Of a stretch of DNA of 32,000 bases, positions 15,979-29,485 are shown piece by piece. How positions within the stretch are numbered: position 1 is the first letter of the stretch; each line of letters starts with the position of its first letter. The position numbers and the translations under genes are program-made. The notes under the pieces were generated by a model. It saw nothing but the letters and a program-made list of their open reading frames with translations, had not been told where the DNA came from and made no database searches. Source of the stretch: Candidatus Saccharimonadota bacterium (lineage in GTDB: Bacteria > Patescibacteriota > Patescibacteriia > 2-12-FULL-60-25); the NCBI GenBank assembly GCA_963718585.1, contig OY970357.1, positions 600,001-632,000 on the forward strand, read 5' to 3'.

Positions 15979-16014
15979 ATCCGCGCGTGGGCTGGTCAAC
16001 GGATGACCGGGGGG

Positions 16015-16020
16015 TATAAT
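16015..16020 (+). promoter_or_regulatory. -10 TATAAT upstream of the lipoprotein gene 16054
   Basis: A perfect TATAAT 33 nt upstream of the ATG. The -35 is weak (TGGTCA). Confidence 0.4.
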
Positions 16021-16053
16021 AGGCCGATACTCAATATCCACCCTTTTTTTCGT

Positions 16054-16710
16054 ATGAAGAAATACCTTCTCTCTCTCGCGGTCCTCTCCCTCGCCGGTGC
16101 CGGCTGTGCCGCACCAACGGCCACTCCCGCGCCCCAAGCACAAACGCCCTCGGCGGAACAGCAGCAGAATGCGGAAGTCGTGCCTACCCAACCGACGTCT
16201 CCGACGGCCAATGTCGATATGGAGGTCCAGGACGCCATGAAGTCACAGGAAGACAATGCCCTCGTGATCCACGATCAGCCGGCAGGAGACGAGATCTTCG
16301 TTCCCTACGTCAAACTCTACAAACAGGGGTACCTCGTCATTCATGTGGATGAAAATGGAAAGCCTGGCGCTATCGTCGCGGAATCCGACCTCTTGAACGC
16401 CGGCGACAACGTCTCGTTCTACATCAAATACAAGCCGCAGCCGGGACGGCACTTCATCGCCATGCTCCACATCGACAATGGCAACGGGAAATGGGACAAC
16501 GCGACCACGGATAAACCGGCCGTTGACAGCAAGAACAACATCATCATGACTCCATTCGTCGCGATCGACACCAATGCGATGAATGACTCAGAGATGAATG
16601 GCGGCGCCACGAGCGACACGACCGGAACGATGATGAAAGCAGAGGATCAGACCGACACCGGGAAGGATGAGAATAGCGAATCGAACACGTCTGATTCGAT
16701 GATGCAGTAA
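16054..16710 (+). CDS. Hypothetical lipoprotein
   Basis: The start is set to MKKYLLSLAVLSLAGAGC (lipobox). TATAAT lies at 16015-16020 upstream, and a bidirectional terminator lies downstream. Confidence 0.65.
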   Translation: MKKYLLSLAVLSLAGAGCAAPTATPAPQAQTPSAEQQQNAEVVPTQPTSPTANVDMEVQDAMKSQEDNALVIHDQPAGDEIFVPYVKLYKQGYLVIHVDENGKPGAIVAESDLLNAGDNVSFYIKYKPQPGRHFIAMLHIDNGNGKWDNATTDKPAVDSKNNIIMTPFVAIDTNAMNDSEMNGGATSDTTGTMMKAEDQTDTGKDENSESNTSDSMMQ

Positions 16711-16723
16711 GCCGTACACAGAC

Positions 16724-16755
16724 AAAAAAACACCCCTGACCGGGGGTGTTTTTTT
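16724..16755. terminator. Bidirectional terminator between convergent genes
   Basis: AAAAAAA CACCCC tgaccg GGGGTG TTTTTTT. Confidence 0.75.
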
Positions 16756-17581
16756 ATAGTGGCATGACTTTGTGCGACGGCCCGCATCGAACGGCATCCG
16801 AGAGATCGACCACGCATGCGCGATACCAGCGTGGCGCGTGGTAGAACGCCGGATCTTCGTAGATATCATCCGTAAATGAGGCCACGCCCGGGTCTCGGAC
16901 CTGCGTCAGATACCCATCGTATGGATAGGAGAGATCGGCATGCTCGAATGACCGGACCAGGGCTATGTATTTGTAGCTCCCTCCAAGCGACGTCGGCGGC
17001 GTCCATGTCAGTACCGCGCCCCCGTCCGTCGGAACGGCGGAAAGCACGAGCTCGCCAGATGGAGCGTCCAGGATCTGGGCCGTGGGCGTCGCGGTCACGA
17101 GCGTATCCGGCAGGTCAATGACCGGTGCGGGAGCGGGAACCAAGGGAGCCGTGACCGCTGATGCAAGGGAAACGGAGGGCACCGGGTCTGCGGCGATCGG
17201 CTCACTGACCGTCACCGAGACCTTCAATGGCTTGGAACAGGTCTTGTCCCCTGTCGTCAGATCGGCACAAAGCCGGTACCAGTAGGTACCGCTCTCCGGT
17301 GGAGCATCTTCCGCGTTCGTGGAATAGCGGTTGTCCGTGGTCGCCACCTGATCCCCGGCATCCGGCGCGGTCGGTCCGTCCGGCGTCGTACGGACGATCT
17401 CATACATCTGAAAATGCTTCGCATCCGGATACCGTGACCACGTGAAAGCGACGTGATCGCCGACGGCTTTGGCGGTGAAGGTCCAGCTGTAGTCCAAAGA
17501 GACCGTGGCATTCGCGGCCGTGCTGGAGAGAAGGGTCAGGACCGCACACAACGCGGCGATCGATGGAAGATATCGTTTCAT
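16754..17581 (-). CDS. Secreted protein with two FN3-like modules, each ending WYRxC...C
   Basis: Signal peptide MKRYLPSIAALCAVLTLLSSTAANA. Internal duplication FTWSRYP...GTYWYRLCADLTTGDKTC versus LTWTPP...PRWYRACVVDLSDAVRC. ATGA overlap with the upstream gene. Confidence 0.6.
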   Translation of the reverse strand: MKRYLPSIAALCAVLTLLSSTAANATVSLDYSWTFTAKAVGDHVAFTWSRYPDAKHFQMYEIVRTTPDGPTAPDAGDQVATTDNRYSTNAEDAPPESGTYWYRLCADLTTGDKTCSKPLKVSVTVSEPIAADPVPSVSLASAVTAPLVPAPAPVIDLPDTLVTATPTAQILDAPSGELVLSAVPTDGGAVLTWTPPTSLGGSYKYIALVRSFEHADLSYPYDGYLTQVRDPGVASFTDDIYEDPAFYHAPRWYRACVVDLSDAVRCGPSHKVMPL

Positions 17582-18036
17582 ACCTTTTCGACGACCTTAC
17601 GCGCCTCATCCAGCGCCACCATCCATTTCGGGATCTCTTCAGGCGGAAGTCGTACGAGTGCAGACAGCATCGCAAACCGTTCCGTCGGAGACAAGGGCAG
17701 AGACAGCATCTTTTCCCAGGCTGGAACGATGGCGTCCGGAAGATCGATGACCCGGTAACGCTTCGACAAGAGCCAGTGAACGAGCGCGGGGCGGAACCCC
17801 TGCTCTCGAGGCATGACGCGCACTTCGACCATCACATCCGTACTCTCCGATGGTGATTCGATCAGGACATCACGAAGTGATGGGATCCCCTGCGTTTGCC
17901 AGGATTCGAACGCACTCCCAAGTATCCGCTCTCCATCCGCATTCAACGATGCATGCGCCAACGCGCCATCAACGACCGACACATCACCGAGATGCTCGCC
18001 GATCGCATCGAAGATCAATAGAAGAGACGTTTTCAT
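17578..18036 (-). CDS. Hypothetical cytoplasmic protein (152 aa)
   Basis: The start is set to ATG 18036 (MKTSLLLIFDAIGEHL...), 1 nt after the upstream stop at 18038. No signal peptide or TM segment. No motif recognised. Confidence 0.5.
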   Translation of the reverse strand: MKTSLLLIFDAIGEHLGDVSVVDGALAHASLNADGERILGSAFESWQTQGIPSLRDVLIESPSESTDVMVEVRVMPREQGFRPALVHWLLSKRYRVIDLPDAIVPAWEKMLSLPLSPTERFAMLSALVRLPPEEIPKWMVALDEARKVVEKV

Positions 18037-18037
18037 A

Positions 18038-19567
18038 TCATGGATGTTTTGTCGGAGCTTTCGACAGAAGAATATCCGCATGTTCCAGCATCTTTCGATG
18101 GAATGCAGCTTTTTGCTCTTGAGAGTAGCCTCGAAACAAAACGTCAATCTTTTTGATACTCCACTGAAGATCTCCAAGAGCCCATAACGTATCTGAATAC
18201 CCATTCCAGCTATTCGCTCGGGCATTCATCAGACCTTCAAGCATCGAATCCCAATCGTATATCGCTTTCGCCTCAGATGCTGTCTTTCCGATCATCTCTC
18301 GCTCTTCCTGCATGTGCAACATATCAAGAGTCTTTTTTTGCCAAGCGAGGTCTCGATCCGTGAATGATCCTTTTGGTGAATTTCGAGCTTCGTTGACCGT
18401 CGTGATGATCTCGTCAGTGAGGACTTGTTCGGCTTTTCCTGTGTCCAGGATGTCACGGTATGCGTCACCAGACAATGCACGCTCCGCCGAGTTGATCCGT
18501 TTAGCTCCTTCCCATGGTCGGTACGAAGGATCGATCTTCTGAAAATACCATTTCACCAATTCCGCATTTACATATGCGGACTGCGGCTCGGCCTCATAGT
18601 CCCCGCGAAGGTTTTCGCGGAATTCACGCTCCCATGCACTCCACGTCGTCACCTGCGGGTCCGTTTCCGTCAACGCCATGCGCATCAACTCTGCAAAATA
18701 CTCCTTTGTCCGATTCCGAAGTTCCGCTTTATCCCCTTTTTGCACAATGATCGATTCCGGATACGCGAATTTAGGCCGACCGGGATCGCGCACAGCCTGC
18801 TCGACAAGGTAATGCAGCTCCAAGGCTTCATCCGCGGTCAAGGTCGGCGACCATTCCCAGTCATTCGCATGCGCGAATTCATGAATTAATGCTCCCTGAA
18901 AAAAGAGCCGATCAATGGCCCTCGACTTATTCGTCTTCACGTCAAAAGATGAAACCACGATCTTTCCCGGTCCTCCGTCTGTGGATCGTGTGAAAAAGGC
19001 ATAATCCTCGTCATGTTCCAAGCCCTTGTAATGGCTCACTTCATGCTGAGGCGCAACGACGACCTCCCCGATGGCGGCCGTGGAACGCCACGGCGCAGGC
19101 AGTGCGTCAACGTACGCACGGACATGGGCCTCCGGTGTCCCGATCCGTTCGAAATTTTTATAAGAGATCGAGCGATGTTCGGATTCGTTCACGGCACGGT
19201 GCGCGCGGCTCATCTGCTGATGTGCAAGCGCGGCCGCCGCGTCCCCGGTCGTCTGATCAAGGACGACCGTCATCTCCGTCTCTGACGGAAATCCCTTTTC
19301 TGATCCCCTCAGAGCTTTCATTGCCGCCGTCTCAGAAGCGGCTTCCTGGCCACGCAGATTGACACCGCATCCCGCGATCCCGTTCGTGCTCGCTAAGAAC
19401 GCGCCGAGCGTCGCGACCTTCTTTGCGGAGCGCGACAAGGAAGAACACATCGCCTCGCGCTGCTTCTTCTCCCGCGTTTCAGACGACGGATGTCGCTCCT
19501 GCGTCTTTGTCTTGCCCGGCGAGACTTTCGCCTCTGATCCGCGGCTGCCTCCTTCGGGTCCGCGCAT
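18038..19567 (-). CDS. Putative zincin-like metalloprotein (HExxH) with lipoprotein signal
   Basis: IHEFAHANDW is encoded at 18869-18883, with EYFAE about 60 residues downstream. The internal ATG at 19450 gives MCSSLSRSAKKVATLGAFLASTNGIAGC (signal + lipobox). The longest ORF starts at ATG 19567, 1 nt after the ftsX stop. Confidence 0.6.
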   Translation of the reverse strand: MRGPEGGSRGSEAKVSPGKTKTQERHPSSETREKKQREAMCSSLSRSAKKVATLGAFLASTNGIAGCGVNLRGQEAASETAAMKALRGSEKGFPSETEMTVVLDQTTGDAAAALAHQQMSRAHRAVNESEHRSISYKNFERIGTPEAHVRAYVDALPAPWRSTAAIGEVVVAPQHEVSHYKGLEHDEDYAFFTRSTDGGPGKIVVSSFDVKTNKSRAIDRLFFQGALIHEFAHANDWEWSPTLTADEALELHYLVEQAVRDPGRPKFAYPESIIVQKGDKAELRNRTKEYFAELMRMALTETDPQVTTWSAWEREFRENLRGDYEAEPQSAYVNAELVKWYFQKIDPSYRPWEGAKRINSAERALSGDAYRDILDTGKAEQVLTDEIITTVNEARNSPKGSFTDRDLAWQKKTLDMLHMQEEREMIGKTASEAKAIYDWDSMLEGLMNARANSWNGYSDTLWALGDLQWSIKKIDVLFRGYSQEQKAAFHRKMLEHADILLSKAPTKHP

Positions 19568-19568
19568 A

Positions 19569-20483
19569 TCACTTCTTCAAATACTTTCCGACGGCAGCCC
19601 AGGATGACAATCCGACAAGGAACGCGAGCGTGCCGCCTTCGGCGAACAAGAGGCTCCCCGCGTTTACGAGGAAGAATGTGCGCAGCCCCGGGTCCGTGTT
19701 GTCAAAGACACCCTGCAAACGCGGATCCAGATACGCCGCGACCGCCATCACGACCCCCGCCGCGACAAGCAATGCCAGAAGCGCAAGAAGGATCCCCTCC
19801 AGCACGAACGGGATCCGGACATACGCGCTCGATGCACCGACCAAGCGCATGATCCCGATCTCTTCCCGCTGCGTATAGATCGCCACGCGTACGGTGTTGT
19901 ACACGATAAGGATCGAGAAAAGCGCAAAGATCGTCACGAGCCCGATACCGAACAGCTCGACCGAATGGCTCAAGTCGCGCACCCGCGCGATGGTATCCGC
20001 GTGGTCCTCATAATCCTTGGAGGCGATCGCAAAATCGAACTGCGGATTCTTGAGTGCGTCGACGAGGAAGGGATAATCATCCGGTTTGTCTGCTTTGAGC
20101 ACGAGGACGGCGCCAAGCGGATTCCCATCGAGTTGATCGAGCGCTCCGAGGACCTTTGGGTCGTCTTTATGATGTTCCTTGAAACGCGTAAGCGCATCGT
20201 CGGCGGAAAGCAGGTCTGCGGATGCGACTTGTGGCAGGCCCGCCATGAAAAAACGCGCCTGTTGGAGCACCGCCTCCGGAGTCTTGGGCTGGAAATAGAC
20301 GGAGACGTCGATCTTATCCTCGAGCTGCGCCACCGCGTTGTTCAACAGGACATGGACACCGACAAGTACATTGACCGAGAGGAGTGCGAGAAAAAGCACG
20401 AAGATGGTCGTGAGCGCGAGCCACATATTGCGCGTGAAGTGCTTCCACGCGGCCATGACAGAACGACGAGCGGTAATGAGCAT
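19569..20483 (-). CDS. ftsX: Cell-division ABC transporter permease-like protein FtsX
   Basis: Directly follows ftsE. Topology is N-terminal TM, extracytoplasmic domain, then three C-terminal TM segments. The start is set to ATG 20483 (MLITARRSV...), 4 nt after the ftsE stop. Confidence 0.8.
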   Translation of the reverse strand: MLITARRSVMAAWKHFTRNMWLALTTIFVLFLALLSVNVLVGVHVLLNNAVAQLEDKIDVSVYFQPKTPEAVLQQARFFMAGLPQVASADLLSADDALTRFKEHHKDDPKVLGALDQLDGNPLGAVLVLKADKPDDYPFLVDALKNPQFDFAIASKDYEDHADTIARVRDLSHSVELFGIGLVTIFALFSILIVYNTVRVAIYTQREEIGIMRLVGASSAYVRIPFVLEGILLALLALLVAAGVVMAVAAYLDPRLQGVFDNTDPGLRTFFLVNAGSLLFAEGGTLAFLVGLSSWAAVGKYLKK

Positions 20484-20487
20484 GGGG

Positions 20488-21174
20488 TCAGGAAGGGAGG
20501 AGATACTTCCCCTCGGCATGATCGGAGATCACGCGTCCGTCGGACAGCGTGATGACCCGACGGCGAAGGGCATTCACGACCTCGCGATTATGGGTGACGA
20601 GGACGATGGTCGTGCCAAAGGAATTGATCTTTTCCAGCAGATCGATGATCTCGCGCGTGTTGATCGCGTCGAGATTCCCGGTCGGCTCATCCGCGAGAAG
20701 GATCTTTGGCCGATGGACGAGCGATCGGGCGATCACCACACGCTGCTGTTCCCCGCCGGAAAGCTGGAGAGGGAACCGTCGTAGCTTCTCATCAAGTCCG
20801 ACGATCTTCAGCACCTGCGGCACGACCTCCCGGATCCGCTTGGAGGGGACGCCAGCCACTTCAAGGGCAAAGGACACGTTCTCATAGACGGTCTTTTTCG
20901 GAAGGAGTTTGAAATCCTGGAACACCACGCCGATCTGACGACGGAGGTACGGCACATCCCGTTTCGGGATCCGGGTGATGTCCCATCCCCCGATCTCGAT
21001 CTTCCCGCGTGTCGGCCGCTCCTCGGCGATCAACATCTTCGCCAACGTCGTCTTGCCTGCACCACTCTGTCCGACGATGGACACGAAATCCCCCGGTTTG
21101 ATGGTCAACGAGATATCCCGGAGCCCATGGACGTCCGGCGGATAGGTCTTGGAAACATGTTCAAGCGTGATCAT
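20488..21174 (-). CDS. ftsE: Cell-division ATP-binding protein FtsE
   Basis: Walker A GQSGAGKTT, signature LSGGEQQR, Walker B ILLADEPTGNLD. 228 aa. Confidence 0.9.
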   Translation of the reverse strand: MITLEHVSKTYPPDVHGLRDISLTIKPGDFVSIVGQSGAGKTTLAKMLIAEERPTRGKIEIGGWDITRIPKRDVPYLRRQIGVVFQDFKLLPKKTVYENVSFALEVAGVPSKRIREVVPQVLKIVGLDEKLRRFPLQLSGGEQQRVVIARSLVHRPKILLADEPTGNLDAINTREIIDLLEKINSFGTTIVLVTHNREVVNALRRRVITLSDGRVISDHAEGKYLLPS

Positions 21175-21184
21175 GGCAAAAAAG

Positions 21185-21958
21185 TTATGGAGCGCTCGCG
21201 ATCTGCGCCGTGCTTGATGGCATGACGGGATCGACCGTCACATTGACGAGTCCAAGTGACAACGGGGCAAGTTGCTTGAACGCGACGGAATCCAGATCGA
21301 TCACGCGGTTCGGGAAGAGATTCCGGTCCGGGCCATAGTCATTGACCGTGACCACGACCGATGTTTCCGGATGATCGGTGAGACTGACCCGTAACTGTGT
21401 GCCTTTGGGAAAATCCGGCGAGGCCGCACAATCACAATGCTTATAACTGTACCAAGTGGCAGTCCCCTGTCGCAGACCGATCGGAGATGATTCCAGTTTC
21501 GCCGCAACATCCGGACCGACGCGCGCTTCCATATATCCATCACGCATCACTGTCGGCGGATGCACGGTCGGTGCAAACGGCGCCGTGATCGCAAGTCCGT
21601 ACTGATCGAATGCGGCCGATCCCGGCGGTTTGATCCCGAGACGGACGCCTTTAGGACCAAAGAGATATGAGCTCGACCATCGAGCCGTGACAGCCGATGT
21701 CGTCGGATCGAATGTGACATCCAATGTTCCCGGAGCAATGACATCACGCGCATCCCACGAGATCCGAACCTGTCCATCGAATAACTTCAGATCCACCGGA
21801 TGGCCGATGAATCCCCAGTCGATATACAACGTCGCGGTCTGGATCGCAGGAACGGCGACTGGTGTGACGGTCTCTGCTGCGAAAATAGGCATCGACCAAG
21901 ACGCCGCGGTCAGCGTCACCGCGACAAAGAATGCAGACAATCCCCTCGCACGTTTCAC
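21185..21958 (-). CDS. Secreted RlpA-like double-psi beta-barrel (DPBB) protein
   Basis: C-terminal GTATWYSYKHCDCAASPDFPKGTQLRVS...VVVTVNDYGPD...VIDLDSVAF resembles the RlpA/DPBB_1 domain. The start is placed at GTG 21958 (KRARGLSAFFVAVTLTAASWSMPIFA signal), with TATCTT 6 nt upstream. The ORF track extends to 22021. Confidence 0.6.
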   Translation of the reverse strand: MKRARGLSAFFVAVTLTAASWSMPIFAAETVTPVAVPAIQTATLYIDWGFIGHPVDLKLFDGQVRISWDARDVIAPGTLDVTFDPTTSAVTARWSSSYLFGPKGVRLGIKPPGSAAFDQYGLAITAPFAPTVHPPTVMRDGYMEARVGPDVAAKLESSPIGLRQGTATWYSYKHCDCAASPDFPKGTQLRVSLTDHPETSVVVTVNDYGPDRNLFPNRVIDLDSVAFKQLAPLSLGLVNVTVDPVMPSSTAQIASAP

Positions 21959-21964
21959 GAAGAA

Positions 21965-21970
21965 AAGATA
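21965..21970 (-). promoter_or_regulatory. -10 TATCTT, 6 nt upstream of GTG 21958
   Basis: TATCTT ttcttc GTG on the minus strand. It lies downstream of the tRNA terminator. Confidence 0.3.
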
Positions 21971-22076
21971 GCAGATAAGCGAAAAATCGCCTACTGGGGA
22001 AAACAGACGATCGGATCGCACAGAAAAAAGAAAAACCCATCTCGGAAGCTGCTCTTTTGATTCGGATCCCGAAACG

Positions 22077-22106: not shown

Positions 22107-22181
22107 TGGAGCCAGTTCCGGGATTCGAACCCGGGACCTCTGCTTTACGAAAGCATTGCTCTACCACTGAGCTAAACTGGC
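22107..22181 (-). tRNA. tRNA-Thr (anticodon CGU), CCA encoded
   Basis: The reverse complement folds as GCCAGTT-TA-GCTC-AGTGGTA-GAGC-A-ATGCT-TTCGTAA-AGCAG-AGGTC-CCGGG-TTCGAAT-CCCGG-AACTGGC-T-CCA. Confidence 0.9.
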
Positions 22182-22182
22182 A

Positions 22183-22257
22183 TGGAGCGGGTAAGGGGAA
22201 TCGAACCCCTCTCCTAGGCTTGGGAAGCCCATATAATAACCACTATACGATACCCGC
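22183..22257 (-). tRNA. tRNA-Gly (anticodon CCC), CCA encoded
   Basis: The reverse complement folds with acceptor GCGGGTA/TACCCGC, anticodon arm TGGGC-TTCCCAA-GCCTA and T arm AGGGG-TTCGATT-CCCCT. It lies 1 nt from tRNA-Thr. Confidence 0.9.
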
Positions 22258-22333: not shown

Positions 22334-22954
22334 TCACTGATCGAACTTCAGGTAGATCTTCACATCCGGATCCGCCATACGCTGCCCCACCGCGCTTTCC
22401 ATCATGACATATTGCTCCTGCGTGTCGGTCGAATACGTTGCCGCCACACGCTCCTGGAGGATCGCGGGACGCAGGACCTTCTGCCGGAACTGCTCCTCGG
22501 TCCAGTTGTAATTATCGTGCAGGTATTGGCCGACATCCGGGATCGTCGAGCTATTGGCCGCAATGATGGCGGCAAAATCTGTCCGCACATCGTCATCTGA
22601 GACGGTCACGTTACGTTGATCCGCCATATCCGCGACCGCAATGTCACGAAGAAGACTTTGCAGCCCCTGCTTTTCAACATCCGGGGTCAACGGCTGCGCC
22701 GAACCCGCCTGCTTGGCTGCATCCGAATTCAAGAACACCTTCAACGTATCGCGCATGTCCAAGAAATCTCCGTACGTCACCGTATGGGTCCCGATCTTCG
22801 CGGCTGGGAGCCAGGACCCGACCTGACGGACGATCGGATTATCACTTCGTTGGACATACACGGCGAACAGGATCCACGCGGCAGCACCGATGATGACGAT
22901 GAACGCGACCAGACCGATGAGGATGGCGCGCATCCGATTGATTTTCAGCTTCAT
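22334..22954 (-). CDS. Membrane-anchored SurA-N-terminal-like chaperone domain protein
   Basis: N-terminal TM segment (AILIGLVAFIVIIGAAAWILFAV) followed by a helical domain resembling the SurA N-terminal/PpiD-like region. ATGA overlap with the upstream gene. The assignment is tentative. Confidence 0.5.
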   Translation of the reverse strand: MKLKINRMRAILIGLVAFIVIIGAAAWILFAVYVQRSDNPIVRQVGSWLPAAKIGTHTVTYGDFLDMRDTLKVFLNSDAAKQAGSAQPLTPDVEKQGLQSLLRDIAVADMADQRNVTVSDDDVRTDFAAIIAANSSTIPDVGQYLHDNYNWTEEQFRQKVLRPAILQERVAATYSTDTQEQYVMMESAVGQRMADPDVKIYLKFDQ

Positions 22955-23394
22955 AATGAGGATGTAGTTTCAGGTTGAGATGCAGAGAAAAAATAGTCCC
23001 ACCAAAGTTCCGGGTTCGGGGTCGTGAGCCGTTCGCTTGGGATATCCGCGAACGCGGTGATGTCTTTCGGTGCGCTTGTCGGCGCCTCCCAACCCGAAAG
23101 GACAATGACACGTTCGTCGGGTTTTTTCCACCCGAGCCGTTCCCGCGCTTCCACGTCAAGCGTGTCTGTCGCGGTCAGTGATTGGGTCAGCTCCATGAGT
23201 TTGGACTTCCGTCCCTCCAGGGCCGTAGCCTGCTGATCAAGGGCGTGGATCTCCCGGTCCACGGTCCACCCCTTGTACGTCTCACGAACCGTTGAGACGC
23301 CGATGAGCAGCAAGATCGCGATGTTCGCCGCGAGAAAGACCGGCCAATGGATGACCGTCTTCCACTTTGGCGGCTCAGACTTCCCTCGTCTCAT
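22951..23394 (-). CDS. Septum-formation initiator family protein (FtsB/DivIC-like)
   Basis: Short cytoplasmic tail, one TM segment (VFLAANIAILLLIGV), a coiled coil (IHALDQQATALEGRKSKLMELTQSL) and ARERLGW. The start is set to ATG 23394, which forms an ATGA overlap with the upstream stop. Confidence 0.6.
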   Translation of the reverse strand: MRRGKSEPPKWKTVIHWPVFLAANIAILLLIGVSTVRETYKGWTVDREIHALDQQATALEGRKSKLMELTQSLTATDTLDVEARERLGWKKPDERVIVLSGWEAPTSAPKDITAFADIPSERLTTPNPELWWDYFFSASQPETTSSL

Positions 23395-24071
23395 ACATTT
23401 CGATGGGATGTCCATCCCTCGGGCGGTTCGGCGGTCTTGAGAAAGGATTCCGTCGCGTCACTCTTGGCGCGTGCTTTGAGGATGGACTCGATGCGCCCCA
23501 ACTCCTCTACGGAGAACCCTTCCAAAAGTTTTGTGATCCGCCGAAGGGCTTCTTGACGCTCCGGCGCGAGATCGGTCCGCTTCGGTGTCGTCGCATGCCG
23601 AAGATCGTTGATCGCTTCGCCGACGAGCTCCGGCTTCGGGATCCGTCGCGCTTCGATCGTGACGCGTTCGGCCGCCACGCGAAGCGTCCCCATGCCAAAG
23701 ACCGTTTCCGCGATCCCATGTCGACGCCAGGAAACGTCCTGGATCGAGGCGACGGGCGCCTCGCTCACGATACGGGAAAAGACCCCTTTTTGGTCCACAT
23801 CCACGATCCGCGTCGTTGTCACGATCAGCACATCCGCATCCCAGATGATGAACGTTCGGATCGCCACCACGACGCCGATGATGACGGACGCGAGGAAAGC
23901 GATGACACCTGGGATCCCCCAGGCGAACAACGGGAATAACAGGAAGAACGGGATGACGATGAGCAAAAATGCCCCGAACAGCCCCGGGAACAATGTGATC
24001 GCGTGGCGCCGGGAAATGAGTTTGACGTCTTCTGCGTCCTTGAGCTGAAGGACGTCCTCAAGCTTTAACAT
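23391..24071 (-). CDS. Membrane protein with bacterial PH (bPH_2/YdbT-like) domain
   Basis: Two TM helices, then IVTTTRIVDVDQKGVFSRIVSEAPVASIQDVSWRRHGIAETVFGMGTLRV. TAATCT lies 7 nt upstream of the ATG. Confidence 0.55.
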   Translation of the reverse strand: MLKLEDVLQLKDAEDVKLISRRHAITLFPGLFGAFLLIVIPFFLLFPLFAWGIPGVIAFLASVIIGVVVAIRTFIIWDADVLIVTTTRIVDVDQKGVFSRIVSEAPVASIQDVSWRRHGIAETVFGMGTLRVAAERVTIEARRIPKPELVGEAINDLRHATTPKRTDLAPERQEALRRITKLLEGFSVEELGRIESILKARAKSDATESFLKTAEPPEGWTSHRNV

Positions 24072-24130: not shown

Positions 24131-25441
24131 TTACGTTCGTCCAAGACGCATCAGCGCCTCCCGTGCGATCTTCCGATCGTCGCTCGGGATCTTCGTCCCG
24201 TTCGGGCCGGCGATGACCGGCTCATTCCCCTTTCCCGTGAGGAGAACGATATCCCCAGGCCGCGCGAGTTCGATCGCTTTTTGGATCGCTTCGTGACGAT
24301 CGAGGATGCGGAACAATGTCTCCCCGTCCCGTTTGCCGGCCGCTGCGGCGGCATTCGCCACATCATTGATGATGGTCATGGGATCATCGTCGTACGGATC
24401 CTCATTCGCCACGATGGTGATATCCGCTCGTTCTGCAGACAGACGCCCGATAACGGCGCGACGTGCGACGTCCCGTCCGCCGCCGGCCGAACCGGTCAGA
24501 TGGATGATCTGTCCATCGCCCTTGTATCGATCAGCGACATCGAACAATTTCCCAAGCGCAGCAGGCTCATACGCGTAATCCACGATGACCATGAATGGCT
24601 GCCCCTCATCGATCCGTTCATAGCGTCCCGGCATCCCCGGAACCAACGCGATCTTTTGCAGCACCGCATCCAACGGAAGACCGAGAGATGTCGCGGTTGC
24701 GATCGCGGCCATCGCATTCTCCACATTGATCTGCCCCGGCAGATCTACGGATCCCCGGTGCCCATCGACCATGAACGACGTTTTCCATCCTTCGTTCTTC
24801 AGATCCGTCGCGTTCAGACCTTCCCCCATACCGATCCCATACCAGACCACATGGTCGAGTCCGGGGACGACAAAGTCCTTGGCGTGTTCACTCATCCGAT
24901 CAAGCACGGCGGTTTTCTCGATCCGGACACCATCCCGCGTCTTTCGCATCGAACGTGCAAGATGCCGAAAGAGCTCGATCTTCGCCTGCTTATACTTCTC
25001 AAACCCGCCATGCGCCTCGATGTGCTCCGGTGTCAGATTCGTGAAGATGCACAGATCGTAATTGATATGACGATGACGGTCCTGAACGATCCCCTGCGAT
25101 GACGTCTCAACGACCGCATATCGACACCCGGCCTTCACCATATCCGCCAAAAGCTTTTGCAGCTGGAACCGTCCGAGCATGGTCATCTTCGAGGCGTTCG
25201 TCCATTCCCGATCCCCGATCTTGAAGAGTGCTGTCGTGCTACACCCGGTCTTCGCCCCCGTCGCTTCGAGCGCCTTGGCCGTGAGATACGACGTCGTAGA
25301 TTTGCCGTTTGTCCCGGTCACGCCCACGACGATGAGCTTTTCCGATGGCCAGCCATACCGGGCCGCCGCGAGCCACGAGAGCACACGATGATACGCCCGA
25401 AATACGGGCGCAGGGACGATCTTCCGGATGGCGTTCAACAT
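24131..25441 (-). CDS. murE: UDP-N-acetylmuramoyl-L-alanyl-D-glutamate--diamino acid ligase (MurE)
   Basis: Mur ligase P-loop VGVTGTNGKSTT, then NLTPEHIEAHG and the C-terminal LTGKGNE region. 436 aa. The position of the mDAP-specific DNPR motif reads NEDPY. Confidence 0.85.
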   Translation of the reverse strand: MLNAIRKIVPAPVFRAYHRVLSWLAAARYGWPSEKLIVVGVTGTNGKSTTSYLTAKALEATGAKTGCSTTALFKIGDREWTNASKMTMLGRFQLQKLLADMVKAGCRYAVVETSSQGIVQDRHRHINYDLCIFTNLTPEHIEAHGGFEKYKQAKIELFRHLARSMRKTRDGVRIEKTAVLDRMSEHAKDFVVPGLDHVVWYGIGMGEGLNATDLKNEGWKTSFMVDGHRGSVDLPGQINVENAMAAIATATSLGLPLDAVLQKIALVPGMPGRYERIDEGQPFMVIVDYAYEPAALGKLFDVADRYKGDGQIIHLTGSAGGGRDVARRAVIGRLSAERADITIVANEDPYDDDPMTIINDVANAAAAAGKRDGETLFRILDRHEAIQKAIELARPGDIVLLTGKGNEPVIAGPNGTKIPSDDRKIAREALMRLGRT

Positions 25442-27337: not shown

Positions 27338-29485
27338 ATGAGCGACCGCCTCAAAGACCTTCTCGCAAGCCTGGTGATCATCCTGGTATTCATCGCATCT
27401 CGGATCGGGGTCATCCCAGGTGATGTCTTTTTCCGTTTTGCCGCGCTTTTCGCCTTGATCTTTCACGCGCAGATCCTTGGCCGGCGTCTCCTCCGGACCG
27501 GCGGTTGGGCCTCACAGACCTCCTACGGCGCCCTGGTGTTCCTCGCGATCCAATCACTGGCCCAGACGGCTTGGTTCTATTCTGGAAGACCCCTGGGGAC
27601 GACGAGCGATCTCTGGACCATGACTGCGGCCATGGTCATCGCCGACCTTATCGCGCTTATCGGCTCATCCGAACCGCACCAGGACAAAGCGACGACATGG
27701 GATCTTCGCAAAGGTCTTCTGGCGACGCTCCTCGCCGGCGCAGGCATCGCGGCCCTGGCGTTCGTCCTCCTCGGCGCATTTCGTGGTTCGACCGCGGTAA
27801 GCATCCGGACTCCATGGCCACTCCTCCTGCCCGGCACCCTCACCGCGATCGCACTCATCTGGATCACCTCAGCGCTCACCGGATGGCTTACGCGCTCTGC
27901 CGCTCTGGCCGCGACGCTCGCCGGCGTCGGGATCGGAGCCACGACGGCCATTGCCCCGCTTCTCTATCGTATTGGCTACGGATTTGATGGCTTCCTCCAC
28001 ATCGCAAGCGAACGGATCATCATGGCAACCGGCACGCTCTCTCCGCGTCCGTTGTATTACATCGGGCAATACGTCTTCACGACGTGGTTCGCCCGCAACG
28101 CCGGCCTCCCCATCGAAGCGGTCGACCGCTGGCTCGTTCCGATCGCCGCCGCGTTCCTCATTCCATTCGCCCTGTACGTGGCCCGGCGTGAGAGCGAAAC
28201 CGCCCTCCTCCCCTTCATCCTCTTCCTTGTTCCGCTCGCACCGTTTGTCGCAACGACGCCTCAGGCCTTGGCGTACCTCCTGGGACTCGCCGCGCTCCTC
28301 CTCTGCCGCGGATTGCATACCGATCGTGTCTCCGCGCTTGGACCATTCATCCTCGCTGCGTGGAGTGCAGCCATCCACCCGCTCGCCGGCGTTCCCTTTC
28401 TCTTCATCGTCTTCGCGCTCTGGAGCGCCACCGAATGGCAAAACACCGCGGTTCGTCGGATCATGCGAGGTTTCGCCATCGCTGCGGCCGTCGGTGCTGC
28501 GGCCGCAGTTCCGGCCCTCTTCGCCATCCTCTCCCGATCCGGCACGGACATCCGCTGGGATCCTGCTCTGCTCTTCCATCCAGACCCCTGGCTGTCACTC
28601 GCCGGTCAGCTCATCCCTTGGCTTGGAAACGTCTTCGCAGTCTGGCCCGGCTGGGCATCCCTTGCCCTGCGCGCAACCCCTGCGATCCTCATCATCGCCT
28701 TGATCGTCGCCATCCGTCAGTCGCGCGGTGTCGACCGGTGGCGCGCGTCCCTTCTCCTCGGCGCAGCCGGCGGCCTTCTCCTCTCCAGCGCGGCGCTCAA
28801 ATCCGCCGGTGATTTTGCATTCCTCATCGATTATGAGCGCGGAAACTATGCGGACCGCCTCATCCTCCTCGCGATCCTCTGTCTCATCCCGTTCACGATC
28901 GATCCGATCGCGCGTCTTTTGGAAAAAGCCCGCACCCGTCCGCTGATCACGATCGCGCTCCTCGCGACCTGTGGCGCATTCGCCGCGGGACAATCCTACG
29001 CCGCGCTCCCCCGCTATGACGCGGTCGAAGCCGGACACGGATGGAGCGTTGGTCAAGCGGACATCGACGCGGTCAGAGCCATTGATCACGATGCCGGCAC
29101 GCGGCCGTACACGGTGCTTGCCGACCAAAGCGTCTCCGCTGCCGCCGTCTCGCAGTTCGGATTCAAACGATACAATGGCGACATCTTCTTCTACCCGATC
29201 CCGACCGGAGGAAGGCTCTACGACACATTCCTCGCCATGACCTACAACGAACCGTCGCGGGATACGGCCAAAGACGCTGCGCGACTCGGCGGGACGGATC
29301 TCGTGTATGTCGTCTTGAACGATTATTGGTGGAATGCGGAACAGCTCGCAGACGAGCTCTCCGCGATCGCAGACAAGACCCTCCCCATCGGAGATGCCAC
29401 GCAGGGCTTGGGCCGAAGCGCGACCGTCTACGTCTTCGACGTCAGCACGTCTTCCAGCCGAGCGACACACCCCTCCGGATCGTGA
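27338..29485 (+). CDS. Large polytopic membrane protein (715 aa), possible GT-C-like glycosyltransferase
   Basis: About 14-16 hydrophobic segments followed by a soluble C-terminal domain of about 150 aa. It sits next to two GT4 genes. The GT-C assignment rests on architecture and context only. Confidence 0.65.
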   Translation: MSDRLKDLLASLVIILVFIASRIGVIPGDVFFRFAALFALIFHAQILGRRLLRTGGWASQTSYGALVFLAIQSLAQTAWFYSGRPLGTTSDLWTMTAAMVIADLIALIGSSEPHQDKATTWDLRKGLLATLLAGAGIAALAFVLLGAFRGSTAVSIRTPWPLLLPGTLTAIALIWITSALTGWLTRSAALAATLAGVGIGATTAIAPLLYRIGYGFDGFLHIASERIIMATGTLSPRPLYYIGQYVFTTWFARNAGLPIEAVDRWLVPIAAAFLIPFALYVARRESETALLPFILFLVPLAPFVATTPQALAYLLGLAALLLCRGLHTDRVSALGPFILAAWSAAIHPLAGVPFLFIVFALWSATEWQNTAVRRIMRGFAIAAAVGAAAAVPALFAILSRSGTDIRWDPALLFHPDPWLSLAGQLIPWLGNVFAVWPGWASLALRATPAILIIALIVAIRQSRGVDRWRASLLLGAAGGLLLSSAALKSAGDFAFLIDYERGNYADRLILLAILCLIPFTIDPIARLLEKARTRPLITIALLATCGAFAAGQSYAALPRYDAVEAGHGWSVGQADIDAVRAIDHDAGTRPYTVLADQSVSAAAVSQFGFKRYNGDIFFYPIPTGGRLYDTFLAMTYNEPSRDTAKDAARLGGTDLVYVVLNDYWWNAEQLADELSAIADKTLPIGDATQGLGRSATVYVFDVSTSSSRATHPSGS

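Follow-up and report, generated by a model that had tools for sequence, protein, structure and literature searches.

A zincin-like protein family and a small companion protein linked to ftsEX in Candidatus Uhrbacteria

Bacteria of the candidate phyla radiation (CPR, Patescibacteria) have tiny genomes from which many division genes are missing, and a locus in one of these genomes, which belongs to the ultra-small, uncultured Candidatus Uhrbacteria, raises the question of what its FtsEX complex acts on. FtsEX is the paradigm of an ATP-binding cassette (ABC) ‘transporter’ that moves no substrate and passes force across the membrane to activate cell-wall hydrolases. The locus lies in a stretch of 32,000 nucleotides (nt), here called the window, on contig OY970357.1 of assembly GCA_963718585.1 (positions 600,001 to 632,000 of the forward strand; unless a locus handle is given, coordinates count from the first nucleotide of the window). 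In it, ftsE and ftsX are followed on the same strand by the genes of a membrane-tethered zincin-like protein of 509 amino acids (aa), hereafter the zincin, of a 152-aa protein (p152) and of a 275-aa protein (p275). The first-pass annotation, made from the letters of the window alone, had seen in these genes a candidate new FtsEX output module; the conserved linkage and the lack of a characterised family stood up to the present analysis, whereas catalysis proved to be mostly lost in the linked copies and the family not to be dedicated to FtsEX.

The linkage of the zincin to ftsX is well supported. Judging from comparative sequence evidence, the zincin and p152 may be functional companions of FtsEX in Candidatus Uhrbacteria, the zincin being a putatively active peptidase in the lineage of the window and a pseudo-enzyme in others, a reading to which we give a probability of roughly 0.45; physical coupling to FtsEX and a substrate for the zincin we only infer. 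Known FtsEX partners are coiled-coil proteins with LytM, CHAP or NlpC/P60 domains, and the coiled coil is the element by which every one of them binds FtsX (PMC11627006). The earlier statement that none of them is an HExxH zincin agrees with this 2024 review, which gives coiled-coil partners only, and a zincin partner would therefore be new. The literature search returned nothing linking FtsEX to an HExxH zincin, and nothing on FtsEX partners in Patescibacteria.

Linkage of the zincin and p152 genes to ftsX

The block occupies positions 16754-22021 of the minus strand and contains, in transcriptional order, the following genes, with the terminator that closes it:

21185-22021, minus strand: RlpA-like DPBB protein (Pfam DPBB_1), first gene of the conserved block
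20488-21174, minus strand: ftsE, ABC ATPase (TIGR02673 and ABC_tran)
19569-20483, minus strand: ftsX, 304 aa from the ATG at 20483 (longest open reading frame from 20519), with FtsX_ECD and permease domains
18038-19567, minus strand: membrane-tethered zincin-like protein of an unannotated family, 509 aa (470 aa from the start at 19450)
17578-18036, minus strand: p152, small predicted cytoplasmic protein, 152 aa, the most constant companion of ftsX and the zincin
16754-17581, minus strand: p275, secreted protein with two putative Fn3/Ig-like repeats and a Sec signal visible in the translation, last gene
16724-16755, both strands: bidirectional intrinsic terminator, a perfect hairpin with a T-run, closing the operon and a convergent DUF7282 gene

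The identity of the first two genes after the RlpA-like one is secure by profile. FtsE matched TIGR02673 over residues 1-214 of 214 (284 bits, cut-off 264.85) and ABC_tran with E = 4.7e-37, and FtsX exceeded the cut-offs of both FtsX_ECD PF18075 (39.8 bits, cut-off 23.5) and the permease domain PF02687 (48.6 bits, cut-off 25.5), while remaining below the NCBIfam equivalog cut-offs (147 vs 255), as expected for a divergent CPR protein. The 304-aa FtsX aligns end to end with the 303-306-aa FtsX of relatives, and the gene call at one of the related loci (L001) is also 304 aa.

Read directly, the ftsE TGA is followed by ‘cccc’ and the ftsX ATG at 20483, the ftsX TGA (19571-19569) by a single ‘t’ and the zincin ATG at 19567, and the zincin TGA (18040-18038) again by ‘t’ and the p152 ATG at 18036; p152 and p275 overlap in an ATGA (17581/17578). 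The distances down the block from ftsE are thus 4, 1, 1 and -4 nt, and every open reading frame (ORF) and junction of the five tightly packed same-strand genes was re-read as first described. This packing goes beyond chance: dozens of related genomes have the genes in identical order and again leave 1-9 nt after ftsX.

The terminal hairpin at 16724-16755 folds on the two strands at -20.0 and -18.9 kcal/mol (z = -4.5 and -4.7), in keeping with the strong terminator originally annotated there. It is the strongest of the region, yet was missed by the pattern-based terminator scan, so that the negatives of that scan are not to be over-read, including its failure to return a convincing minus-strand terminator within the block. 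A sigma-70-like promoter was not found inside the block on the minus strand, a weak negative given that CPR promoters may differ. Beyond ftsX, where no hairpin or T-run had been seen, the interval 19440-19580 indeed held no terminator-like site, no Rfam match and no unusual fold (z = 0.11 against shuffled sequence). An RNA element or attenuator in this interval was considered and rejected on the same Rfam and folding results. The RlpA-like gene, ftsE, ftsX, the zincin gene and p152 (with p275 in the window) probably form a single operon, characteristic of Candidatus Uhrbacteria. The convergent DUF7282 gene, which encodes a lipoprotein-like product (16003-16710, plus strand), uses the same bidirectional terminator as the block, and its position after p275 is kept in loci L045, L006, L007 and L010.

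A scan for FtsX with one genome per GTDB species provided 56 loci, 45 of which carry an FtsX at least 46% identical and belong to Candidatus Uhrbacteria or unclassified Patescibacteria. Many of the loci with an FtsX of 50-64% identity (L011, L016, L017, L019, L021, L023, L027-L029, L033, L036 and others) bear the titles ‘uncultured Gammaproteobacteria’ or ‘Candidatus Methylomirabilis’, which look wrong for contigs or metagenome-assembled genomes of Patescibacteria type. Profile hidden Markov models (HMMs) of the zincin family and of p152 were scanned over all ORFs of these FtsX-selected loci, the informative set being the 38 Uhrbacteria-type loci, selected on FtsX and nothing else, whose sequence reaches far enough past ftsX. 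A zincin family member stands directly after ftsX in 26 of the 38, a count made up of 24 loci scored as ftsX, family member and p152, together with L045 and L028, which have the same arrangement and over-extended longest ORFs. The linked members start 1-9 nt past the ftsX stop or overlap it. For p152, 35 of the 38 loci have a homologue at most 2.6 kb past ftsX, and in two of the 38 another ORF and then p152 come after ftsX. Neither the zincin nor p152 was detected in eight outgroup loci (Kerfeldbacteria-like CPR and one Erysipelothrix); with 26 of 38 loci against none of eight, homologues sit directly downstream of ftsX far above chance, as had been anticipated. In the Erysipelothrix locus, the genes downstream of ftsEX encode an M23 protein of PcsB type, with a coiled coil, and then an S41 protease; this is the classical arrangement, which offers a precedent for a partner gene at exactly the post-ftsX position.

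A second sample, in which family members were taken by phmmer rank independently of gene context, pointed the same way, five of seven informative members being ftsX-linked (P0002, P0004, P0006, P0014 and P0027), among them the three nearest relatives of the window zincin that were looked up. The two others, P0007 and P0010, are not linked to ftsX and yet both adjoin a p152 homologue; P0038, at a contig edge, is uninformative on linkage. Variants of the arrangement also occur: L074 (2569-5181) has ftsX, a 150-aa p152 homologue, the zincin P0006 and then a 243-aa protein, possibly the equivalent of p275, and L002 (2719-6609, on a contig shared with L059) and L064 carry a tandem of ftsX, zincin, p152, zincin and p152, in which both zincins have an intact HExxH and only a distant similarity to each other.

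Pairwise distances of the zincin and FtsX correlate (Spearman 0.57, Mantel p < 0.001; 0.64 for FtsX vs FtsE), and in a neighbour-joining (NJ) tree the linked zincins form the backbone, with the unlinked copies as two derived clades. The distance correlation indicates that the association of the zincin with ftsEX is old and vertically inherited. Mean identities fall from 77% for FtsE and 59% for FtsX to 27% for p152 and 17% for the zincin, and gene order and near-zero spacing are kept despite this divergence.

The zincin family

No match to the zincin was obtained in Pfam, NCBIfam, PADLOC or PHROG, a word-indexed protein search returned the query only, and profile searches of PDB sequences with the family gave nothing significant. 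An exhaustive phmmer search with the 509-aa query retrieved 82 cluster representatives, 12 of them below 1e-30, and Pfam scans of 60 homologues gave scattered sub-threshold matches, e.g. SprT-like and Peptidase_M91, in two members each. The profile-HMM check first suggested for the three proteins downstream of ftsX thus placed none of them in a characterised family. The parts of the zincin gene, all on the minus strand, are as follows:

19451-19567, minus strand: N-terminal tail of 39 basic/acidic, presumably cytoplasmic residues, or, if the later start codon is used, a 118-nt spacer
19367-19450, minus strand: signal/anchor segment MCSSLSRSAKKVATLGAFLASTNGIAGC, with the lipobox IAGC at residues 64-67 of the 509-aa form
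18869-18883, minus strand: HEFAH, residues 229-233, on the predicted active-site helix
18689-18703, minus strand: EYFAE, residues 289-293, its first Glu being the candidate third zinc ligand
18065-18643, minus strand: C-terminal all-helical domain of about 190 aa, starting near a W-Y-x3-DP-x-F/Y-x-PW-E motif

The pairing of HEFAH with EYFAE about 60 residues on, noticed at first reading, was confirmed at these residues, Glu289 lying 56 residues downstream of HExxH. Both His residues of HExxH are invariant in the alignment of 60 homologues, and the Glu of HExxH, Glu289 (Glu250 in the 470-aa form) and Ala253 are each at least 90% conserved. Further recurrent motifs of the family are RP[KR]FxYPE[SG]I, E[YF][FW]AE and W-Y-x3-DPxFxPWEA. 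A conserved [GL]-[FL]-P-S-x3-M stands at residues 92-99 (19271-19294), in the N-terminal helical region before the catalytic core; within it, P55 and M60 (470-aa numbering) each reach at least 90% conservation in an alignment of the family, and it could be a pro-segment, an auto-inhibitory element or a docking element.

An AlphaFold2 model of the 470-aa form, built with the family alignment, reached a predicted local distance difference test (pLDDT) of 87.7 and a predicted template modelling score (pTM) of 0.86. It consists of an N-terminal helical region, a small mixed beta-sheet, the HExxH helix (178-195), a helix (241-261, 470-aa numbering as throughout the model) bearing E250 and A253, and a C-terminal domain of eight helices (270-462). 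Foldseek searches against PDB and BFVD gave no match at E <= 0.001. The top PDB match was 4l7a, a putative Zn-metallopeptidase of Bacteroides (E = 0.12, probability 0.89, template modelling scores 0.25/0.41), followed by 1g12 and matrix metalloproteinases at E > 1, zincins among noise. The protein modelled here thus probably contains a zincin-like domain of gluzincin type, in a family without a solved or curated relative. A zincin-like companion of FtsEX gains support in that the sensible top structural matches are zincins only and the model is confident, with HExxH and the Glu on helices.

Each family member has one N-terminal hydrophobic segment, preceded by 11-120 residues, with a lipobox-like Cys in 28 of the 60 and a hydrophobic anchor without Cys in the others. 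In the window, IAGC follows an h-region of 10-12 residues, and the n-region is 11 residues long from the start at 19450 or 50 from that at 19567. The ORF is open to 1 nt past the ftsX stop, as it is to 1-9 nt in most related ftsX-linked loci, and gene callers differ on the start (502 vs 475 aa inside the P0004 cluster); for these reasons translation of the 39-residue tail is probable, in some members of the family at least. Of the lipoprotein signal annotated from the ATG at 19450, the IAGC at residues 64-67 holds, whereas the description as a clean lipoprotein has become uncertain, tails before the hydrophobic segment being usual. The zincin is membrane-tethered outside the cell, whichever start codon is used.

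The GC content at third codon positions (GC3) is 0.57 in the zincin gene, compared with 0.70-0.75 in the neighbours, 0.63 in p152 and 0.59 in the RlpA-like gene. Within the zincin gene, the 5' end has a GC3 of about 0.69, which drops to 0.46 and then to 0.30 in the last third (18038-18700). Relaxed or fast evolution is the more likely cause of the low value; the dip in GC content at 18-19 kb had suggested horizontal acquisition, which was rejected, a recent transfer being unlikely given the vertical co-inheritance with ftsX.

Loss of the zinc motif and alternative readings

HExxH had been expected to be conserved, and its His residues are invariant in the sequence-detectable homologues, but the motif is lost in most ftsX-linked orthologues. 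Among the 26 linked copies selected by FtsX, only six keep HExxH (L002, L017, L021, L035, L036 and L045), and about 20 have neither HExxH anywhere nor the Glu of EYFAE; the degenerate segment reads, for instance, HRAIAAANDW in L022 and VRATVSSSDW in L026. The HMM score of these orthologues comes mostly from the C-terminal domain (HMM positions about 290-490) and a short N-terminal stretch. The NJ tree implies at least three losses, and the full motif is retained in the window zincin and its nearest relatives. Since HExxH is lost in most linked copies, the constant feature lies in the non-catalytic parts rather than in catalysis. EnvC, whose LytM domain is inactive (PMC11627006), offers an analogy, and the HExxH-less linked zincins would fit adaptors of that kind. 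That the degenerate copies retain both their place after ftsX and their C-terminal domain is counted in favour of a functional tie to FtsEX.

Linkage to ftsEX, for which a check had been proposed, is borne out by the 26 of 38 linked loci, and intact paralogues occur in other neighbourhoods, often still accompanied by p152. Such paralogues away from ftsEX were found in L058, L060-L063, L066-L070 and L075. A metagenome scan made with 13 family sequences gave mostly copies unlinked to ftsX; since it searched for the HExxH and RPKFxYPE motifs, this sample is biased to intact HExxH. Copies of this kind, near genes for SBP_bac_5, RNase J, a tRNA synthetase and ribosomal protein L25, would be expected if the zincin were a passenger of the operon, an independent tethered surface protease, engaged in surface-protein processing or peptide scavenging, that is co-transcribed with ftsEX without receiving any signal from it. 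The zincin has no coiled coil, its very fast evolution (17% mean identity) and low GC3 fit a dispensable surface protein, and in small CPR genomes unrelated genes are packed tightly. Such a passenger, however, would hardly hold its post-ftsX position down to 17% identity with vertical co-inheritance, and an inactive one would be expected to be deleted, whereas the catalytically dead copies are still kept with an intact C-terminal domain. We consider this explanation unlikely. Under mere operonic hitch-hiking, the proteins would still represent a new fast-evolving family of surface metalloproteases, confined to a single candidate class.

Two distant and short members (355 and 459 aa), in L066 (2767-6917) and L067 (2540-6988), have an intact HExxH, are followed by a p152 homologue and stand directly behind a TraG/VirD4/HerA-like ATPase of 830-860 aa, a neighbour that only distant members have; this context may point, outside Uhrbacteria, to a connection with type IV secretion or conjugation-like systems. 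It is here that a conflict or mobile cassette inserted downstream of ftsX comes into question, in which the zincin would be a toxin, either secreted or at the surface, or else a protease associated with conjugation, and p152 its partner or immunity protein. The proximity of this coupling ATPase, the two-gene unit with its tandem duplication (L002/L059), the rapid divergence and the low GC3 would all suit a cassette; the zincin is, however, tethered to the producer's own membrane and inherited vertically with ftsEX, its dead copies are retained in place, no PADLOC, PHROG or BFVD match and no recognisable toxin-trafficking domain were obtained, and the flanks of the block in the window showed neither an integrase nor a transposase. 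This origin appears very improbable. Another unlinked copy, P0007 in L058 (2469-4890 and 6957-11503), lies near three unannotated genes (509, 161 and 94 aa), a YkuD L,D-transpeptidase, an SMC-like ATPase and a VanW/PG_binding_4 protein; the metagenome-assembled genome to which L058 belongs has p152 directly after ftsX on another contig (L016).

Among the companions of ftsX, p152 is the most constant. It has no signal peptide and no transmembrane segment, no Pfam, NCBIfam, PADLOC, PHROG or PDB match was obtained, a word-indexed search returned the query only, and Pfam scans of 27 sequences (the window protein and 26 homologues) gave scattered sub-threshold matches only. In its alignment, G50 is invariant and G35, A84, W88 and E119 are at least 90% conserved; a single-sequence structure model (pLDDT 60) was not used. 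Some homologues carry long basic tails rich in lysine, serine and proline, C-terminal in L024, L027 and L031 and N-terminal in L006, L007 and L010, the latter with a CPxxCGC motif. Their composition suggests nucleic acid or membrane binding, or a metal site, and the lysine-rich tails support a cytoplasmic location of p152.

The constancy of p152 raises the possibility that the real cofactor of FtsEX is p152, with the zincin as its variable accessory and the pair docked through p152. This would account for p152 lying near ftsX in 35 of 38 loci and directly after it in seven zincin-less ones, for its place beside unlinked zincins (L058, L066, L067 and L075) and in the tandem second pair of L002/L059/L064, and for the order ftsX, p152, zincin in L074. 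Against it, p152 is predicted to be cytoplasmic and the zincin domain extracytoplasmic, so that the short N-terminal tail would be needed as a putative bridge, and four paralogues (L060-L063) have no p152. On balance this seems quite improbable.

Of the two small proteins that had tentatively been counted to the module, p152 is the constant one; p275 is confined to a small clade. Homologues of p275 were found only in L045, L006, L007, L010 and L071, with a candidate 243-aa gene in L074, and its loci L006, L007 and L010 contain no zincin. A word-indexed search with p275 gave one further homologue (P0085, 51% identity). Precomputed matches assign PF25832 (Fn3_SaeA_2nd) to P0084 and P0085, and faintly to the L071 homologue; hmmscan of p275 against the local Pfam copy did not reproduce PF25832, and no NCBIfam, PADLOC or PHROG match was obtained. 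From this distribution, p275 would be a clade-specific, late and lineage-specific addition.

Several of the findings weigh against the zincin and p152 being functional companions of FtsEX. Six of the degenerate assignments are weak (HMM E 1e-4 to 6e-3) and are to be treated with caution. In seven of the 38 loci ftsX is followed directly by p152 without a zincin, and in three both are absent downstream of ftsX. Intact paralogues by housekeeping genes or a TraG/VirD4-like ATPase imply that the family is not FtsEX-dedicated, and the correlation of zincin and FtsX distances is a matter of shared descent, not of contact or interaction. The zincin has no long coiled coil, the longest predicted helix of the AlphaFold2 model being 29 residues, and peptidoglycan hydrolases do not usually belong to the HExxH zincins. 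In the window zincin and the 60 homologues, Pfam and NCBIfam returned no LytM/M23, CHAP or NlpC/P60 match, nor was CC_PcsB or any other coiled-coil family matched. By coiled coil and hydrolase domain, the zincin therefore falls outside the partner class; that it works like that class is plausible.

The RlpA-like gene, proposed mechanism and known FtsEX systems

An RlpA-like protein had been annotated immediately upstream of ftsE, and a DPBB_1 domain, of RlpA type, was found there (40.9 bits, cut-off 28.8); the protein remains far from the TIGR00413 rlpA cut-off (23.8 bits vs 82.15), and its translation probably begins downstream of the GTG at 22021. The homologue is present upstream of ftsE in 46 of 57 loci, and also in L072, L074 and L077. 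Farther upstream on the same strand follow tRNA-Thr(CGT) and tRNA-Gly(CCC) genes (22107-22257), overlapping genes for SurA_N-like and DivIC/FtsB-like proteins (22334-23415) and a Mur ligase gene (24131-25441). These envelope, Mur and DivIC-type genes place the ftsEX block in a division/envelope neighbourhood; the two tRNA genes stand between the block and the DivIC gene. A 226-aa ORF with hydrophobic segments (23391-24071, minus strand) and a 715-aa ORF (27338-29485, plus strand) had no Pfam match at E <= 1e-4.

If the zincin and p152 are companions of FtsEX, the zincin on the outer face of the membrane, beside the extracytoplasmic domain of FtsX, would serve the FtsEX mechanotransducer as its local output. 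With an intact HExxH, as in the window, ATP hydrolysis by FtsE might gate or position a peptidase cutting a septal envelope substrate, for which peptidoglycan stem peptides or a surface protein are candidates. Where it is lost, the protein could serve as adaptor or activator of another hydrolase, like the catalytically dead LytM protein EnvC, with the co-encoded RlpA-like enzyme as the obvious candidate. On the cytoplasmic side, p152 may bind FtsE or the N-terminal tail of the zincin, as a cofactor like SteA/SteB, accessory factors in the FtsEX pathway of Corynebacterium (PMC6705760), or SweC/SweD, which are required with FtsEX and the hydrolase in B. subtilis (PMC6705773). A fuller version, in which Uhrbacteria have swapped the coiled-coil partner for a three-part transmembrane module of tethered gluzincin (peptidase in some lineages, pseudo-enzyme adaptor in others), p152 contacting FtsE or the tail, and RlpA-like glycosidase, is rather unlikely; under it, FtsEX mechanotransduction could drive a wholly different class of enzyme, and decay from enzyme to adaptor would have taken place repeatedly, parallel to EnvC.

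If the companion role were true, the range of outputs under FtsEX control would be widened. The loss of HExxH would then be a second, independent example of decay from enzyme to adaptor in such a system, and a presently unannotated family of about 100 members would be among the few concrete leads on wall remodelling in the division of CPR/Patescibacteria.

Compared with known gluzincins having a distant third ligand, the zincin is alike in its HExxH on one predicted helix, preceded by a small mixed beta-sheet, and in a conserved Glu, the candidate third ligand, about 56 residues on, on the next long helix. MtfA/peptidase M90 and anthrax lethal factor are gluzincin-type zincins of this kind, and E-[YF]-[FW]-A-E is presumably comparable to the ECFAV of MtfA/M90, a likeness confirmed by no search. 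The conserved N-terminal helical region and the 190-aa C-terminal helical domain are additions, unlike known gluzincins and 4l7a.

The RlpA-like protein resembles RlpA, a septal lytic transglycosylase, in its DPBB_1 domain of catalytic type, encoded at a conserved position upstream of ftsE, and differs from it in its score far below TIGR00413 and in that no SPOR domain was detected by Pfam or NCBIfam scans. For p152, SteA/SteB and SweC/SweD are a possible analogy as small cytoplasmic-side or membrane factors, to which no sequence similarity was found; its role as an FtsEX accessory we infer from gene linkage alone.

Finally, the zincin differs from EnvC (Escherichia coli), PcsB (Streptococcus pneumoniae), CwlO (Bacillus subtilis) and RipC (Mycobacterium tuberculosis, Corynebacterium glutamicum) in its predicted HExxH zincin-like fold without a long coiled coil, and in having a membrane anchor of its own and possibly a cytoplasmic tail. 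It shares with them an extracytoplasmic location and a genetic tie to ftsEX, and with some Firmicutes partners, as in the Erysipelothrix locus (L057), the gene position directly after ftsX. As with PcsB and RipC on the one hand and EnvC on the other, the family holds putatively catalytic and catalytically dead members, and, as in FtsEX-partner systems, a cell-wall enzyme gene, here the RlpA-like one, stands in the same operon. The zincin/p152 system is thus a plausible variant of the FtsEX-partner theme.

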